A stretch of DNA of 64,000 bases from a virus. Under the pieces are notes generated by a model that was given only the letters and a program-made list of their open reading frames with translations, searched no databases and was not told the DNA's origin. The stretch lies in IMG/VR virus record IMGVR_UViG_3300005683_000019, positions 65,622 to 129,621 of that record; one strand, 5' to 3'. Made by a program: the position numbers and the translations under genes. This document shows, in pieces, positions 1,555 through 63,954 of this stretch (position 1 is the stretch's first letter; each line of letters opens with the position of its first letter).

Positions 1555-2358
1555 TTAAGCGTTATATGCTTCAATGAGATACAGAATTTCTTCAACAATC
1601 GAATCGAACTTTACCGGAGCCATCCTGACCGCATCCTTAATGTCGTCACGCGTGATAGACTTCTTTGCGACAACGATTTTTTCAAACTTGGATGAATCCA
1701 GAGAGAACGTCTTAAGACCGATTGATTTTGAATTGAGTTGCTTCTCAATCAAGTTTTCGACAAGCACCGGTGCACCACTATTGACAGTCTTATAAACGCC
1801 TTCCTGGCGCACTGTGCGCCCAATTTCGATACACATGAGATTGATGGTTGCGGCGATTGGATATCCGTCAAATAGATTCGGATGTTTAATGCCGTCAACA
1901 GTTCGACCCTCAAGATTGACCTTGACACCCTTGCAGACTGTAATATTATTACGATCATGGCCTTGGCGAGCAGCGTCAGAGCGATCCCCTTCAAGAGTCT
2001 TCTTCATAGAGGCAATCAGTCGATTCTTACGATCATTGAAAAGATCTTCTGCAACCTTCGCATCTAGGGAAGATAGCTTTGAATCATTCGACTTTTCGAT
2101 GAATTCCTTTACATCGGAGTAAGAAACACTCTCAAGCGCAGCAATCTTTCGCTTATACAATGCTTCGACGGAAATTCGAGTAATGACTTGAACATCCATG
2201 ATGGGCGAAACAGAATAACCGCTGGTCGGCCTGTAGCCATAGATAGTGCCAATGCCGCCAGCGTTCAGTTCCTTTAGAACATCGAGGGTATCGGATTGCT
2301 CCTTGGAACACCAGAACTTTTCACCTGCATCAGTTGTATACAGCACATTATTAGCCAT
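1555..2358 (-). CDS. Hypothetical protein
   Basis: 267-aa ORF with AAGGA RBS, in operon. Confidence 0.75.
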   Translation of the reverse strand: MANNVLYTTDAGEKFWCSKEQSDTLDVLKELNAGGIGTIYGYRPTSGYSVSPIMDVQVITRISVEALYKRKIAALESVSYSDVKEFIEKSNDSKLSSLDAKVAEDLFNDRKNRLIASMKKTLEGDRSDAARQGHDRNNITVCKGVKVNLEGRTVDGIKHPNLFDGYPIAATINLMCIEIGRTVRQEGVYKTVNSGAPVLVENLIEKQLNSKSIGLKTFSLDSSKFEKIVVAKKSITRDDIKDAVRMAPVKFDSIVEEILYLIEAYNA

Positions 2359-2407
2359 GTTTTTTCCTTAGTAGATTGGAAGATTCTACTACATTGGTTG
2401 TAGAAGG

Positions 2408-2977
2408 TCAAGCGCGAATGAAATTTGTTACATTTTTTGGGAGGATATGTTTAACCGCTCTGTAATATAAGATTGAATCATCGTATAGGTTGAAGGTTAC
2501 ATCCTTTTTATGACCTTCTATATTAACCCAATTAAAGAAATCATCCCACATTTCTTTACCAAGTCCTCTACCCCTCAGTTTTGTCTGAACCCAAAAACAC
2601 GCTTCTCGATTTATGTTATTTGACCCACTGTGCCTCGCAACAGTATACCATGCGACAGGGTGGTCATTAATTAGATAGACTTTGATTATATCAATCTGAT
2701 TGTCATCCATTGTAAAGATCTCATACATCAATCCATCGATAATTTTATGATGCATGTTGCCCAATGCCCGTTTATACTTGTTCGGAATTTCCTTCCAAGT
2801 TTTGTAAGTCATTGTTTTCACAAGAGATTTGTCGATCATCGGTTTGCGTTTCTGCATCATAGATAAATTTATAGCGCCCTCTTGATTGGTCCTGAACAAT
2901 CTGTCCAGAACATCCAGGACGTAATGCAGGAGAAAGTAATACCACGTCTGAAAGAGGGATTTTAAATATTGTACCAT
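2408..2977 (-). CDS. GNAT-family acetyltransferase-like protein (start may be 2839)
   Basis: FWVQTKLRGRGLGKEM resembles GNAT motif A (R-G-x-G-x-G). Confidence 0.55.
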   Translation of the reverse strand: MVQYLKSLFQTWYYFLLHYVLDVLDRLFRTNQEGAINLSMMQKRKPMIDKSLVKTMTYKTWKEIPNKYKRALGNMHHKIIDGLMYEIFTMDDNQIDIIKVYLINDHPVAWYTVARHSGSNNINREACFWVQTKLRGRGLGKEMWDDFFNWVNIEGHKKDVTFNLYDDSILYYRAVKHILPKNVTNFIRA

Positions 2978-3035
2978 CGTCTTCGTTCCTAAATAATCCG
3001 GTTTCTTTGAATTTAATTACATAAGTGACGCGCAT

Positions 3036-3224
3036 TTAACGCCTCTTGACAATTTTAGACAATTCTTTCATTTCCTGCATCCACTGTTTGGCTCGTTGGC
3101 GCCTTAGATAGATTCGCCATTCAAAGATTCCAGCTATGATAGCAAAAACTATCAATCCAATGATAGCGTCCATTTTTGTTGCAATGAAAGGTTCCATGGT
3201 TAGTTCTTTATGATCGTGCCGCAC
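3036..3224 (-). CDS. Small membrane protein
   Basis: One hydrophobic helix followed by a basic tail. Confidence 0.5.
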   Translation of the reverse strand: MRHDHKELTMEPFIATKMDAIIGLIVFAIIAGIFEWRIYLRRQRAKQWMQEMKELSKIVKRR

Positions 3225-3390
3225 TTCTTTTCTTTCTCAAGATGAGAATATTCTTCAATATTATTGTTGTATTACTCACTTTTTCATCCTCTCACAGTGG
3301 ATGATCCATCATAACACATATGAAAGGCTTGACACAAGCCTTAGTTTGATTGTATTGTCCTTGCCATGTTCAACAACGACATGACACATC

Positions 3391-3741
3391 ATGTGTGCCC
3401 CGCCCGCTCTACTCCATACGTACAAACCCAAGAATCTTCCGTGGACTGCTCCGCCAACCGCTCTTCTGTATGCATATCAAAACGCCCGGTGTTTTTATTG
3501 TAACAAATATATCGAGTATATTGCTCATTCAGGTGGCGCTAAGGAAGAGAAGGGCTATACTATCGACCATCTGTTCCCGCGTAGCAAGGGATTCCGTAAG
3601 GCGGGTAATTCAGTGCTCGCGTGTCGTCGATGTAATGAGATCAAGGGAAACCGCTGGCCTACTGTTAAGGAAATCACAAAAGCCAGTGAACTATACACCA
3701 TGATGCAACGCACTTTCATTTTGGAGATGAACAATGAGTAA
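3391..3741 (+). CDS. HNH endonuclease (small, McrA-like)
   Basis: CFYC...TIDHLFPRSKG...NSVLACRRCNEIKG. Confidence 0.85.
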   Translation: MCAPPALLHTYKPKNLPWTAPPTALLYAYQNARCFYCNKYIEYIAHSGGAKEEKGYTIDHLFPRSKGFRKAGNSVLACRRCNEIKGNRWPTVKEITKASELYTMMQRTFILEMNNE

Positions 3742-6250: not shown

Positions 6251-6467
6251 GAGGTCTTAGCTAAGTAGGTATTTTAAATCTTTACTGATTTAAAAGGCAG
6301 TCGGAGACTTCACAGTTGATCCGATAGAGGCATGTAGTTGGCCGTTGTCAGTGAAAATTTCACTTGACACAAACCCGAAGTTATGTCATTATTGGCATTG
6401 ATTTTGGGAACTATAGCATCGGTGTGAAGAACCGACAGCGCCGGTTCAATTCCGGCAGACCTCACCA
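6251..6467 (+). tRNA. tRNA-Phe(GAA) interrupted by 142-nt D-loop insert (6272-6413)
   Basis: Removing insert gives GAGGTCT TA GCTA AGTAGGTA TAGC A TCGGT GTGAAGA ACCGA CAGC GCCGG TTCAATT CCGGC AGACCTC A CCA. Confidence 0.85.
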
Positions 6468-10502: not shown

Positions 10503-11417
10503 CATGCAAGACGGGAACCACTGACGAGATCTCCCGAAAAATGATCGAAAGCTCTACACTAAATAGAGCTATGGTTTAGCACTCTAGGGACGAAAGGAAC
10601 TAGTGACCGGATAGAGTATCGCGAGATGCTTAAAGATTGGCAGCCTCCCTAGCCAATCACCAGAAATGGCCCATCTAAACAATGGTACATATCTCCACTG
10701 GAAACAGTGGTCTGATCTAAAAAATCAGATAGATTGAAGATGTAGTGGGACAGACAGAATATCTGGCTAACTGTGGGATATCTGTAGCTCCGCAAGAGTC
10801 TACCACATGCAAATACATTGAAAATCGAAGATGAATACCAAGGTATGAGGTTCGAGCTTTAGCGGGCAAGGGCGCATACGAAGATGTATAAGGTTATGGA
10901 AGCTTTGTGCACCATAAAGGTATACAACAGTGTGAGTAGTCTTAGCGGATGAAAGTACAGGAGGCGTGTGGTATATCGTATAATAAAGTTATACGATGTC
11001 ACGGTGACACGCGTCTTAGGAGGTTACAACTTGGCCTATTGGTTGGGCATTAGTCTTTTAACACTAACGTAAGGTGGTTCGACTCCATCAGTTCATAAAA
11101 ACGCAAAGTTGTCACCGGCTGTAATTGAAAATAGCGTAACACTTGACACTTCGGTGAATCAAGTCAATATAAAGCTCGCAAAGCGATATATTGTTCAAGG
11201 AAAGTTGCACGTAAGGGGTAGCTCCCTGTACTGCTCGCAAGGTAGGCGGTAGACGGAACTTGGAATAGATTACAGTGACACTAGAATTGCCACTAGTATA
11301 AAAAGGCCGCTATGGTTGATACTTCCAAGGTGGAAGTGGATAAGGGAAGAACTTTAAGATTAAGCACCTTAGAGATAATGTCCCGAAAGGCAACCGCATC
11401 ATGCTCTAATCTCAGGC
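10503..11417 (+). ncRNA. Giant structured ncRNA, GOLLD-like
   Basis: About 915 nt without ORF, many hairpins with GNRA/GCAA loops, own promoter, tRNA-cluster context; GTGAGTAGTC, GCTCGCAA, GGGTAGCTCC and terminal TAATCTCAG match my recollection of GOLLD (no covariance search run). Confidence 0.65.
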
Positions 11418-11548
11418 TTGACTAATAGATTTCTTAATGTTGCCAAGGATATGTTTCATACGATTCCTTTTGAGTTCTCCTTGTTATAGCACGCCATTCT
11501 TGGCAACATTAAGAAATTTAGATTGACACAAACACTAAATAGATTTAA

Positions 11549-15454: not shown

Positions 15455-15594
15455 GTCTCTTTGGCCGAGTGGTCTATGGCAGCAGGCTGTGGGTGTAGAG
15501 TTATAGGCTCTTTTCAGTTCAAATCTGAAATCACCAAAAGTAACCTGCCGTTGCGAAAGCACAATCGTTGGTTCGAATCCAACAGGGGACTCCA
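15455..15594 (+). tRNA. His-like tRNA (GTG) with 50-nt anticodon-loop intron and long variable arm
   Basis: GTCTCTT/AGGGGAC-T-CCA, D-arm GCCG/TGGC, stem GCAGG/CCTGC interrupted at 15493-15542. Confidence 0.75.
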
Positions 15595-15612
15595 ATTTAT
15601 CAGGATAATATA

Positions 15613-15957
15613 ATGTTAACTCTGCATACAAATGGTCATGGACTTTGGTCTAACGAGGCTAAGAGTGTAGAAATCGTAGAGATCGAATTGCTCTGGCATA
15701 GCGAATGTATACCAGAACTTAGAGTATATTTTGACGCTGATTCTTGGGACGTGGAAGAAGACGGACTGATCTATACAGATCCACTATTCGAAACCGAATT
15801 GCAAGAATTTTTACATGATTGTGGTTTTGAAGACGTAAAAAGTGTTAATGGATCTGAACAAGGCATGCAGGGACGCTATTATGTATCACTTGATACATCT
15901 GAAGCCTTTGCAGAAAGCTATGATCAGAGTACAGTCGATCAACGAATGAAGTGGTAA
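15613..15957 (+). CDS. Hypothetical acidic protein
   Basis: AGGA RBS; upstream ORF extension overlaps tRNA. Confidence 0.7.
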   Translation: MLTLHTNGHGLWSNEAKSVEIVEIELLWHSECIPELRVYFDADSWDVEEDGLIYTDPLFETELQEFLHDCGFEDVKSVNGSEQGMQGRYYVSLDTSEAFAESYDQSTVDQRMKW

Positions 15958-21488: not shown

Positions 21489-21935
21489 ATGTCTACCTTC
21501 TCTAAAGCCCTCCAGATCGCCACAGAAGCGCATTTTAATACTTATGACAAGGGTGGCCACTCCTACATCTTACACCCGCTCAGAATCGCAATGCGGCTGC
21601 GCACGCATGATGAAGAACTTATGTCCATTGCGGTGATGCATGACACGATTGAAGATAGTGCGGTGACGTTCGAAGATTTGGCCAATTTTGGTTTTAGCGA
21701 ACGGGTTATCAATGCTTTGCGCCTTCTGACTCATCAGAAAGGTCAATCATATGACCAGTATATTGACGCCATGCGCGGTAATATTGATGCGCTTAAAATC
21801 AAGCGCGAAGATCTTCGCGATAACTCTGATATCACTCGTCTGAAAGGAGTTACGGAAAAAGATATTAGACGCATGGAAAAATACCAGCGGTCTTTCATGA
21901 GGGTAGAACAGTTCATCAAGGAACTGGAAAAATGA
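21489..21935 (+). CDS. HD-domain hydrolase, SpoT/Mesh1-like
   Basis: ATEAH...DKGG..YILHP...AVMHDTIED. Confidence 0.85.
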   Translation: MSTFSKALQIATEAHFNTYDKGGHSYILHPLRIAMRLRTHDEELMSIAVMHDTIEDSAVTFEDLANFGFSERVINALRLLTHQKGQSYDQYIDAMRGNIDALKIKREDLRDNSDITRLKGVTEKDIRRMEKYQRSFMRVEQFIKELEK

Positions 21936-22627: not shown

Positions 22628-23203
22628 ATGTCAGGCTGGTCATTCCCAGAATTCGTTAATAATTTTAAGCGCAAGCTAAAATTCGATACTTCTAGTGACA
22701 AGAAAAAGGCCGCTACTTTCTTTACACTAAAGACTAGCGCGCAACTGGAACAAGAGAATAATGCGCGCGAAGAACAAGCAAAATTGAGCGAGCGAAATGT
22801 TGAATGGTATATCAATAGATATTTTGGCTATCACATGACCAATACCCGCAAGGCTATTGAAATGGATCAACTGATTCCACAAGCATTCAAAGAATTGTTT
22901 GAAAGGTCGCCCGTAAGATCTGCCGATATCAACCAGAGCCGATGCACATTTGGTATTAAACTCAGCGATACGCTTGAAATTGGGTTACAAGTATGCGCGT
23001 ATCCATATTTCTATCCGGATGAAGAAATTGAACACATGATGATCCCACATGACATCATGTATACGATTGAATATCATTACAGCGATAAGGGCGACATGGA
23101 CTATCATAAGACTGTTGGACCTAAGACTTTCAGCGAATTGATTGAAACGGAAATCCCACCTTGGTTTAAGGAACACTTGAATGCAGAATTCGCACACTCC
23201 TGA
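22628..23203 (+). CDS. Hypothetical protein
   Basis: GGAG RBS, 191 aa. Confidence 0.7.
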   Translation: MSGWSFPEFVNNFKRKLKFDTSSDKKKAATFFTLKTSAQLEQENNAREEQAKLSERNVEWYINRYFGYHMTNTRKAIEMDQLIPQAFKELFERSPVRSADINQSRCTFGIKLSDTLEIGLQVCAYPYFYPDEEIEHMMIPHDIMYTIEYHYSDKGDMDYHKTVGPKTFSELIETEIPPWFKEHLNAEFAHS

Positions 23204-23287
23204 AGAAAAGTTCATCGCCAGTGTAATAAATCTTTATTGGCTTAAAAAGCCAATTCAAGAAATTTTTGTACAACTGCTATAAATAGA

Positions 23288-23500
23288 TTTGTATCTAAAG
23301 ATACAAATCTTCCTAATCAAATAAGTGGAATCTCCACAAGAGGGAAGAAGTTGTAAGTAAAAGCAGTCGGAGACTTCACGGTTGATCCGATAGAGGCATG
23401 TAGTTGGCCGTTGCCAGTGAAATTGTCACTAGACACAAACCAGAAGTTATGTCATTATTGACATTGATTTCAGGAACTATAAAAAGTACCAAAAAGAAAG
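23288..23500 (+). ncRNA. Stand-alone structured RNA sharing a 119-nt core with the tRNA-Phe insert
   Basis: 23363-23481 equals 6297-6415 with 9 substitutions by hand alignment; TATAAATA upstream, terminator downstream. Confidence 0.75.
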
Positions 23501-23526
23501 AAAAGGCGGCCTAGGCCGCCTTTTCT
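23499..23526. terminator. Bidirectional intrinsic terminator
   Basis: Palindrome AGAAAAGGCGGCCTAGGCCGCCTTTTCT at convergent junction. Confidence 0.85.
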
Positions 23527-23545: not shown

Positions 23546-23818
23546 TTAGCATGGCGCGTCTCCATTTTCTAGAATATTGACACCTGCAATATTCTCATGT
23601 GCCAGAAATTTCTTAAACTCACTTGCGTATGCAGTAATCTGTACTACCCCGATGATCGGAAACACCTTGTAAGAAAATACATCGAAATTATTGAAATAGT
23701 TCTCTGCGAAGATCTTCTTGTCTTCATCAGAAGTTAAATGATTTCGATCTAAGATAATATTAGCTGACACAACATTATCGTCAACTGCCAGTGCTGCTGT
23801 AAGTGTTTCTTTATTCAT
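23546..23818 (-). CDS. Hypothetical protein
   Basis: AAGGA RBS, 90 aa. Confidence 0.65.
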   Translation of the reverse strand: MNKETLTAALAVDDNVVSANIILDRNHLTSDEDKKIFAENYFNNFDVFSYKVFPIIGVVQITAYASEFKKFLAHENIAGVNILENGDAPC

Positions 23819-24792: not shown

Positions 24793-25566
24793 TTATGTTA
24801 ATTTCTTCTGAGATGACTCGTATATATCAAATATTTTTTGCACGTTCTTTCTGTCGCGTGTAAACACGTTAACTGCGCCAGATTTTTTGTGAACTTTGGT
24901 ATAATGTATGCCAAGTCTGTCCAATGAAGAAGTATAAAGATTTATGATATCCATCGATTTGTTTGTAAATTGATATGATGGTAGATCTGTTTTCGAGCCA
25001 TCTTCTTTTATTCTATTACTGGCATTGAAGAGACATCCATCGGTATCAATCAATCCTTTAATAAAGCAATCTGTATGTTCTTCCACTAATTCAGTCTGCC
25101 AATCTGTTAACAGTATATTCCTATCATGCTTTTTCCCTTGACCATGTTGTGGAAAGTATTGATCTAAAGATTTATTGTATACTGTTATTGTATACATGTT
25201 ATATGACGGATGTTTGATACTATTGACTTTATTTTGGTTGAACAATATATTCAGCGAACGTATTTGGTCATCAATGATTGAAGGATGAGCAGAACCGCTG
25301 AATATTTCGAGTTTCTTTGTGCGTGGAAACTGACTAATACAACCATCACCCAAATAACAACCAAGAATATAAACGTAATGGGGTGCGCAGTTTTTACATA
25401 TGTTTATGATATCTTCTTTAGTTGTTGATATTGTTCTTGTGCCAGTTGTAAAATTATTCTGCTTCCAATAAAAGACTGTTGATTCCCCAACGCCAAGTTC
25501 TTTTGCAATTTGACGCAGTGACGCGCCATCTGATATTCTATTTTTTGTGTACTCAAATCTATCCAT
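24793..25566 (-). CDS. HTH plus double-motif LAGLIDADG homing endonuclease
   Basis: LRQIAKELGV; LGCYLGDGC and IKGLIDTDGC. Confidence 0.8.
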   Translation of the reverse strand: MDRFEYTKNRISDGASLRQIAKELGVGESTVFYWKQNNFTTGTRTISTTKEDIINICKNCAPHYVYILGCYLGDGCISQFPRTKKLEIFSGSAHPSIIDDQIRSLNILFNQNKVNSIKHPSYNMYTITVYNKSLDQYFPQHGQGKKHDRNILLTDWQTELVEEHTDCFIKGLIDTDGCLFNASNRIKEDGSKTDLPSYQFTNKSMDIINLYTSSLDRLGIHYTKVHKKSGAVNVFTRDRKNVQKIFDIYESSQKKLT

Positions 25567-25704: not shown

Positions 25705-25745
25705 GGTTTATTTTCTTATTTATAACTTTACACATGTTCAATATA

Positions 25746-28728: not shown

Positions 28729-28792
28729 TTACTTTCTCCTAGTATGTTATTTCTATTTATAGGAGAAACAAAAAAGTGTAAAAGTGTTGATT

Positions 28793-35891: not shown

Positions 35892-36164
35892 AAAAATATA
35901 CTCCGTGTATATTTCTATTTATAAAGATTCCGACCACACGCCCATTTTAAATGGGTCGCACTGAACAAACAATGAAAGGGCTTAAGCCCTTTCATTGTTT
36001 GTGAGCAATTGTAAACAAAGTTGTGCTAACGCTTGGTTAACTGTTAACCCACCATTAAGACAAGACACCATTAGCGAAGAATTTTCTTTTGAAGAAAAAG
36101 CGGGGAGATTTAACTCCCCGCCCATCATGACTCTAAACGAATCATTTAGATGCCTAACGTACAC

Positions 36165-63393: not shown

Positions 63394-63447
63394 TATTTTT
63401 TCCCTTTTGACCAACGTATTTATTACAGAATCAGAAAGATGCAAAAG

Positions 63448-63477
63448 AAAAATGGCAGCCAAAAGCTGCCATTTTTT
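63448..63477 (-). terminator. tmRNA terminator
   Basis: AAAAATGGCAGC-loop-GCTGCCATTTTT. Confidence 0.75.
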
Positions 63478-63743
63478 AATCAATTGGATAATAAGGATGA
63501 TCAGTCCCCAATGGTTCATGCCGCTAGGGCAGTTTCACCATAAAATGCGTCATTGCTTGCATTTATATTTTTTATGCTGATTAGGTCAGTCATCTATCCA
63601 GTTGTCCATTTGTTTACTCTTCTTCCCGTCGAAGCCTTGCCGACCCATCAACAGAAAACTTAATACACAAATTTTCTCTTGGTGGATCGGACGGGAATCG
63701 AACCCGTGTCCGCGAAGCCTTTCGACTTACTTCATACAACCAT
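63478..63743 (-). ncRNA. ssrA: Two-piece (circularly permuted) tmRNA
   Basis: Acceptor piece ...GGACACGGGTTCGATTCCCGTCCGATCC-ACCA precedes coding piece GGGTCGG...TTCGACGGG; G3:U70; tag ASNDAFYGETALAA-stop at 63516-63560. Confidence 0.9.
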
Positions 63744-63747
63744 ATTT

Positions 63748-63954
63748 TTATTTATAACTATTAATCTTATCTTCTAAACGTGCCATTTTTAACTGAATTT
63801 GTTCATAAACTTTATCATAACCAAAAATTGTAGCCATTTGTTCCATCATGATGATCACATCTGATATTTCACTAATCCAATCTTCGACAGTATCCCTATT
63901 TTGAGCTTTTCTTCCCACTAAAGTTAGAAACTCTCCACATTCTCCAACCGCCAT
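63748..63954 (-). CDS. MazG-like nucleotide pyrophosphohydrolase (5' end uncertain)
   Basis: ECGE...EISDV; homology-like text WGVADQIN continues upstream to an in-frame TAA. Confidence 0.6.
   Translation of the reverse strand: MAVGECGEFLTLVGRKAQNRDTVEDWISEISDVIIMMEQMATIFGYDKVYEQIQLKMARLEDKINSYK

Follow-up and report, generated by a model that had tools for sequence, protein, structure and literature searches.

A probable IS607-derived mini-element with a TnpB omega-RNA scaffold in a large phage genome

Described guide-only elements and the present locus

In TnpB transposons, the omega RNA is encoded across the 3′ end of tnpB to the right end (RE) of the element, and the adjoining right flank is used as the guide (10.1101/2023.11.20.567912; PMC10055086). 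In IS607 elements, the TAM and the end of the scaffold have a core dinucleotide in common (10.1101/2023.11.20.567912). Standalone omega RNAs and PATE-like elements that need TnpB in trans are already known: ORF-less PATE-like elements of IS200/IS605-type transposons have been described (Meers 2023, PMC10055086), and standalone omega RNAs act in trans, as far as the summary of Altae-Tran 2021 in PMC10691335 relates.

Here we describe a locus at ~23225–23480 of a 64,000-nt window, the whole stretch of DNA analysed, which spans bases 65622–129621 of the phage record IMGVR_UViG_3300005683_000019 (G000; 129,621 bp; estimated to be 60% complete). Alignments make it very probable that the locus is an internally deleted, ORF-less mini-element derived from an IS607-family transposon. 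With the same high confidence, this free copy appears to retain a left end (LE), a promoter-like TATAAATA box, a dead tnpA start and an RE with a TnpB omega-RNA scaffold. It measures 256 nt and contains zero genes, compared with 1.9 kb and two intact genes in a full-length relative (L010) from another phage. As in an ORF-less IS607 derivative, an LE and an RE homologous to those of the relative, the RE with a common terminus, enclose no gene. The components of an autonomous IS607 element, a serine-recombinase TnpA with an N-terminal HTH and a tnpB, are absent at the locus and present in L010.

The element resembles PATE-like elements and standalone omega RNAs in having transposon ends without protein genes, an intact scaffold that ends at the RE, several copies per genome and a reliance on TnpB or TnpA supplied in trans. 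What sets it apart from PATE-like elements is, first, the IS607-type parent with its serine recombinase, theirs being IS605 with a Y1 transposase. It also has a scaffold family uncatalogued in Rfam, a late-promoter-like box in the LE and one copy inserted in a tRNA D-loop; the host is a large phage, and the effector was not found in 129.6 kb of its genome.

Further likenesses are seen with the C. botulinum CboIStron (10.1101/2023.11.20.567912), whose omega RNA likewise extends over the 3′ end of tnpB and stops at the RE. The copy in the tRNA D-loop resembles CboIStron and other IS607 elements of the TnpA(serine)–TnpB type in lacking inverted repeats and a target duplication. The scaffold end CTAT and the left flank GTAT differ at one position, as do UCGG and TGGG (TAM) in CboIStron. 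From four junctions we infer a core dinucleotide of AT here, rather than the GG of CboIStron. CboIStron has a group I intron, whereas the present element has none, and the free copy has lost both genes. With IStrons in general (PMC4227781), the elements described here share a TnpB-type origin and, in one copy, a sense orientation inside a gene with a functional RNA product. Unlike IStrons, they lack a ribozyme core, so removal at the RNA level is not predicted, and only DNA excision by TnpA would restore the interrupted gene, a tRNA-Phe.

The shared core and the 3′ end of tnpB

The first-pass annotation had described the locus as a free-standing relative of an insert in this tRNA-Phe gene, and the alignment bears it out: the core (23359–23481) is 91.9% identical over 123 nt to the insert (6293–6415; E = 6e-47). 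The core has no match in Rfam, either at the gathering threshold across the whole window or at the locus with the E limit relaxed to 10; hits admitted under that limit fall on the terminator or in the AT-rich 5′ portion, outside the scaffold. A pattern scan of IMG/VR with the core led to a complete 306,759-bp phage with terminal repeats (G001, IMGVR_UViG_3300013288_000004; loci L005 and L010). Another locus from the viral-contig scan, L006, was discarded as a chance match inside a coding region.

In L010, the final 37 codons of a 409-aa ORF lie within the core, which terminates 13 nt past the stop codon. This ORF is a TnpB (NF040570, guided_TnpB, 167 bits; Pfam OrfB_IS605 and Cas12f1-like TNB), and the gene upstream of and overlapping it encodes an IS607 serine transposase (NF033518, 183 bits with a cut-off of 110; Pfam Resolvase). 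The full-length element occupies L010:1683–3581, with tnpA at 1776–2342 and tnpB at 2339–3568. The copies in the present phage are 86–91% identical to the last 125 nt of this element (over 123–137 nt), the free-copy and L010 scaffolds being 86% identical, and the copies and L010 share one terminus, ...GGAACTAT.

Covariance models, built first on four close copies and next on six sequences, place their matches exactly at the tnpB 3′ end in L017, L019, L020, L023 and L022/L027, with a weak match in L024. TnpB proteins at these loci are 36–50% identical to that of L010; L017 also carries a serine-recombinase TnpA, and the RE terminus ACTAT is kept in L017 and L019. In an alignment of nine sequences, fitted to the model and so favourable to structure, 94.6% of cells are paired; sliding the partners lowers this to 32–45%. 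In the same fitted alignment, 23 of the 36 pairs change on both sides, a level reached by 0 of 500 shuffles. Owing to this covariation and to the position of the core at the tnpB 3′ end in L010 and at least six further viral loci, we assign the core, by sequence comparison, as the omega-RNA scaffold and right end of a phage-borne IS607 clade. An omega-RNA scaffold family without an Rfam match is thereby added and tied to the IS607 TnpBs of a phage-borne clade. A tempting misreading also falls away: the structured RNA shared in this tRNA-rich region of the phage is a guide-RNA module of a transposon and not a tRNA-maturation system.

The L010 element is the closest relative found, with a homologous LE that includes the TATAAATA box, a homologous RE and scaffold, and a left-flank GGTAT as at the tRNA-Phe copy. 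Its host phage is only distantly related to the present one (28% identity for a neighbouring protein) and contains one full element and zero mini-copies. In a metagenome scan, the only occurrences were on contigs of these two phages, which come from the neighbouring ENA analyses ERZ761584 and ERZ761590.

By eye, the L010 TnpB (L010:2339–3568) keeps the RuvC D/E/D motifs (SVDIG, IGEN, NADVN). A zinc finger with CxxC pairs is usual in TnpB; the L010 protein has no such pairs at that position. A PDB search with it returned no close solved relative, only an AI-designed nuclease (E = 1e-6). In L022 and L027, weak omega-RNA model matches also occur upstream of tnpB, at 1968–2052 (+) and 1545–1658 (−) (E = 0.013 and 0.15); by the model, these may be further ORF-less scaffold copies.

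Architecture of the free copy and its siblings

Homology to the full-length transposon begins at ~23225, ~55 nt upstream of the start given in the first-pass annotation. The LE (23225–23320, +; start accurate to ~2 nt) aligns with L010:1683–1790 through the former tnpA start, with a local alignment score of 70 compared with 23.5 ± 4.2 for shuffles (0 of 1,000 as high; z ~11). It contains the T4-late-promoter-like TATAAATA box (23278–23285, +), whose promoter function is putative, inside a 17-nt stretch that is identical in L010 and stands there 22 nt before the tnpA ATG. An LE hairpin with an 11-bp stem spans 23285–23310 (+; 23285–23295 with 23300–23310); at the hairpin position, L010 has a shorter, 6-bp inverted repeat that spans the tnpA ribosome-binding region. 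In the alignment, an ATA at 23321–23323 (+) falls opposite the L010 tnpA ATG, as expected of a dead start codon.

The linker that follows (23324–23356, +) includes a GTGGA/TCCAC hairpin (23326–23330 with 23334–23338). Similarity of 23297–23356 to the L010 element is at chance level (score 29; shuffles 27.9 ± 3.3), and a tblastn extension of the match to TnpB residue 288 was discounted because the linker has no significant similarity to L010. The scaffold, which is also the RE, spans 23357–23480 (+) and ends in AACTAT. Its five predicted helices pair 23366–23371 with 23386–23391, 23372–23375 with 23380–23383, 23395–23397 with 23407–23409, 23412–23420 with 23426–23435, and 23440–23454 with 23459–23474. 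What is left of tnpB corresponds to its last 38–68 codon equivalents only and contains stops. The 18-nt right flank (23481–23498, +) lies, by its placement relative to the RE, in the guide position of a TnpB omega RNA, and a bidirectional intrinsic terminator, a perfect 28-nt palindrome, occupies 23499–23526.

The individual features of the first-pass annotation are thus all present at the coordinates checked: the TATAAATA box, the 11-bp inverted repeat, GTGGA/TCCAC, the shared core and the 28-nt terminator. It was also right that the unit holds no tRNA and no ORF, as ARAGORN returned zero tRNA at the locus and the longest ORFs inside the unit encode 36–39 aa without homology. A recombinase-binding motif common to LE and RE, suspected by eye, did not rise above shuffles, and blastn of the locus and its flanks gave no match among GenBank phages.

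The terminator had been read as the element's own. The flanking genes, neither with a Pfam match, are convergent (22628–23203, +, and 23546–23818, −), and the spacer between them is ~86 nt once the element is subtracted, with the terminator inside it. Since an element-free spacer would hold a bidirectional terminator, the terminator belongs to the neighbouring genes and not to the element. A transcript leaving the RE would also stop there, 18–45 nt beyond the scaffold.

The window contains 14 copies of TATAAATA, where 8.8 ± 2.8 would be expected; a count of 14 was reached in 4 of 100 shuffles. Other copies in the window stand 12–35 nt upstream of tRNA-Leu and several ORF starts. These positions, upstream of tRNA-Leu(CAA) and ORFs, are consistent with a T4-like late promoter in this phage and make a promoter role at the locus plausible. 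The locus documents an IS607 left end with a phage late-promoter-like box. Among the boxes on the minus strand (25717–25724, 28754–28761 and 35916–35923) is the one 12 nt upstream of tRNA-Leu(CAA); the others lie 25–32 nt before ORF starts with ribosome-binding sites.

The insert in tRNA-Phe(GAA) lies in the D-loop at 6273–6414 (+), is 142 nt long and has the same orientation as the tRNA. It is made up of a 25-nt piece of LE, which scores 38 compared with 18 ± 3 in shuffles, and the scaffold, the two meeting at an AAAAG microhomology. With 6273–6414 removed in silico, the remaining 75 nt form a canonical tRNA-Phe(GAA), its D-arm reading GCTA/AGTAGGTA/TAGC. The junctions have AT on both sides, with no target duplication and no inverted repeat, and the left flank ends in GGTAT here as at the L010 and L017 insertions. 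On these alignments, we read the insert as a second mini-element, inserted at GGTAT in the D-loop, and as a clean example of a 142-nt guide-only element in a tRNA D-loop. That GGTAT makes tRNA D-loops general targets was rejected; among the window tRNAs, only tRNA-Phe has GGTAT there. Viral contigs yielded no tRNA-Phe site free of the insert, and G001 no tRNA-Phe 3′ half. No insertion-free allele of any copy was found (GenBank phages for the free copy; viral contigs; G001).

Elsewhere in the record, outside the window, a third copy occupies G000:C1:21557–21681 (−) and is unrelated to any tRNA. It shares 96.7% identity with the tRNA-Phe copy and 92.6% with the free copy, and comprises the RE only; an LE search scored 23, at chance level. 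It keeps ~25 more nt of the tnpB 3′ end. Because the copies keep different lengths of LE and tnpB, the 'swappable 5′ domains' of a modular core proposed in the first-pass annotation are, by the LE alignments, differing internal-deletion breakpoints. Its suggestion that the free copy was the donor of the D-loop copy stands in so far as both derive from one mobile element; their relative age cannot be read from the sequences.

The third copy (L002:1500–1700, equivalent to G000:C1 ~21557–21760, −) sits between 13-nt direct repeats, TTTTTCTACTTTT. One repeat follows an upstream AACTAT and the other begins 4 nt past the copy's own AACTAT. Target duplications are not expected of IS607 elements. The tnpB codons that this copy keeps also provide an extended −10-like box, TGATATAAT, ~7 nt before the scaffold.

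Proposed activity and competing readings

Neither protein nor family searches found tnpA or tnpB in the 129.6 kb of G000, ~60% of the genome; control families gave matches. Any activity would therefore need proteins in trans. As an explanation of the locus as a whole, we favour, with moderate confidence, a mini-element that serves as guide and homing module for a TnpB supplied in trans. Transcription would start from the element's own TATAAATA box, or by read-through of the upstream gene, or both. The transcript would comprise the scaffold and the 18-nt flank as guide, stopping at the terminator of the neighbours. A cognate TnpB from elsewhere, encoded in the missing 40% of the genome or by a co-infecting phage such as the 306-kb one, would bind this RNA and cut insertion-free alleles carrying a TAM of approximately GGTAT, inferred by analogy, followed by the flank sequence. 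Recombination would then copy the element back in, amounting to homing or retention, and copies with an LE as well as an RE could be mobilised by a TnpA acting in trans. Given a compatible TnpB, such modules would be RNA-guided homing elements between phage genomes. These steps are less certain than the identity of the element. A search of G000 and G001 for other targets of the 18-nt flank gave nothing above control, in keeping with a selfish element and not with a guide that has been re-aimed. We take the element to be selfish and see no link between it and tRNA maturation. A counterpoint to function is that the free copy contains the helix-weakening mispairs C.A (helix 4) and A.A (helix 5).

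The main rival accepts the same identity and takes the three copies for inert, decaying leftovers of old IS607 insertions, with no compatible TnpA or TnpB and with a functionless RNA. The two mispairs of the free copy speak for it, as do the mutated tnpA start, the third copy without an LE, the absence of tnpA and tnpB from the 129.6-kb record and a guide-position flank without another target. Against it, the five helices survive in 3 of 3 copies, which are 92–97% identical among themselves, and the differences fall mostly in loops and bulges or preserve pairing. Moreover, the tRNA-Phe insertion is precise, 40% of the genome is unseen, and a full element exists in a phage assembled in the neighbouring ENA records ERZ761584 and ERZ761590. 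We regard the relic as a possibility to be taken seriously, yet not the probable one.

A more elaborate scenario, which we think unlikely, extends homing to competition between phages. TnpB from the unseen part of the genome or from a co-infecting giant phage would load the scaffolds and cut rivals at uninterrupted alleles, including an intact tRNA-Phe, and the insertions would spread by recombination in mixed infection. Such competition would be like marker exclusion by homing endonucleases, but RNA-guided and split between genomes.

Domestication is less likely still, and we give it little credence. Here, the locus would be a stand-alone guide-RNA gene serving the phage itself, by directing against a host or rival target either TnpB or a TnpB-like repressor without nuclease activity. 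A promoter-like box and a terminator that starts 18 nt past the scaffold, a typical guide length, would suit such a gene; standalone omega RNAs work in trans (PMC10691335), and TnpB-derived repressors are known (PMC10705468). The guide, however, is merely the local flank, as in any transposon copy, with no other match in G000 or G001 above control. The convergent neighbours account for the terminator, and no effector gene was found in G000.

The first-pass annotation had proposed a trans-acting RNA that helps to mature or splice interrupted tRNAs, with the core as a ribozyme or RNA-processing guide. One copy does lie in a tRNA, and that annotation listed several odd tRNAs and an RNA ligase gene in the window. 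But the core is accounted for base by base as the tnpB 3′ end and RE of an IS607-type TnpB transposon, a search with E as lax as 10 matched it to no ribozyme or intron family, the other interrupted tRNAs have no sequence in common with it, and the third copy is unconnected with any tRNA; we consider the proposal barely credible. Equally remote is a self-splicing intron, IStron-like or of another type, the free copy then being an RNA derived from it: IS607/IS605 elements fused to group I introns do splice out of host genes (PMC4227781; 10.1101/2023.11.20.567912) and the tRNA-Phe insert runs in the direction of the tRNA, but group I and II models gave no match, whether at gathering score across the window or, for the locus, at E values up to 10, and the ~95 nt from LE to tnpA in L010 and the 25 nt of LE in the tRNA-Phe insert are both too short for an intron core.

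The window holds further structured RNAs and mobile sequences. A GOLLD RNA (Rfam RF02032, 201.8 bits) lies at 10961–11418 (+) in the phage tRNA cluster, with an embedded tRNA-like match at 11028–11093. A permuted two-piece tmRNA was found at 63425–63787 (−), with the tag ASNDAFYGETALAA (ARAGORN; Rfam tmRNA_permuted/beta_tmRNA). At 15455–15591 (+), an Rfam tRNA match spans 137 nt and marks an interrupted tRNA. The stretch 15487–15615 is 76% identical to part of the 306-kb phage (L029:6702–6814), so this tRNA interruption is common to two distantly related phages. Finally, a free-standing ORF at 24793–25566 (−), 1.3 kb from the locus, has LAGLIDADG_3 and HTH domains and adjoins tRNA-Leu and tRNA-Lys; it probably encodes a homing endonuclease, another mobile-element gene.
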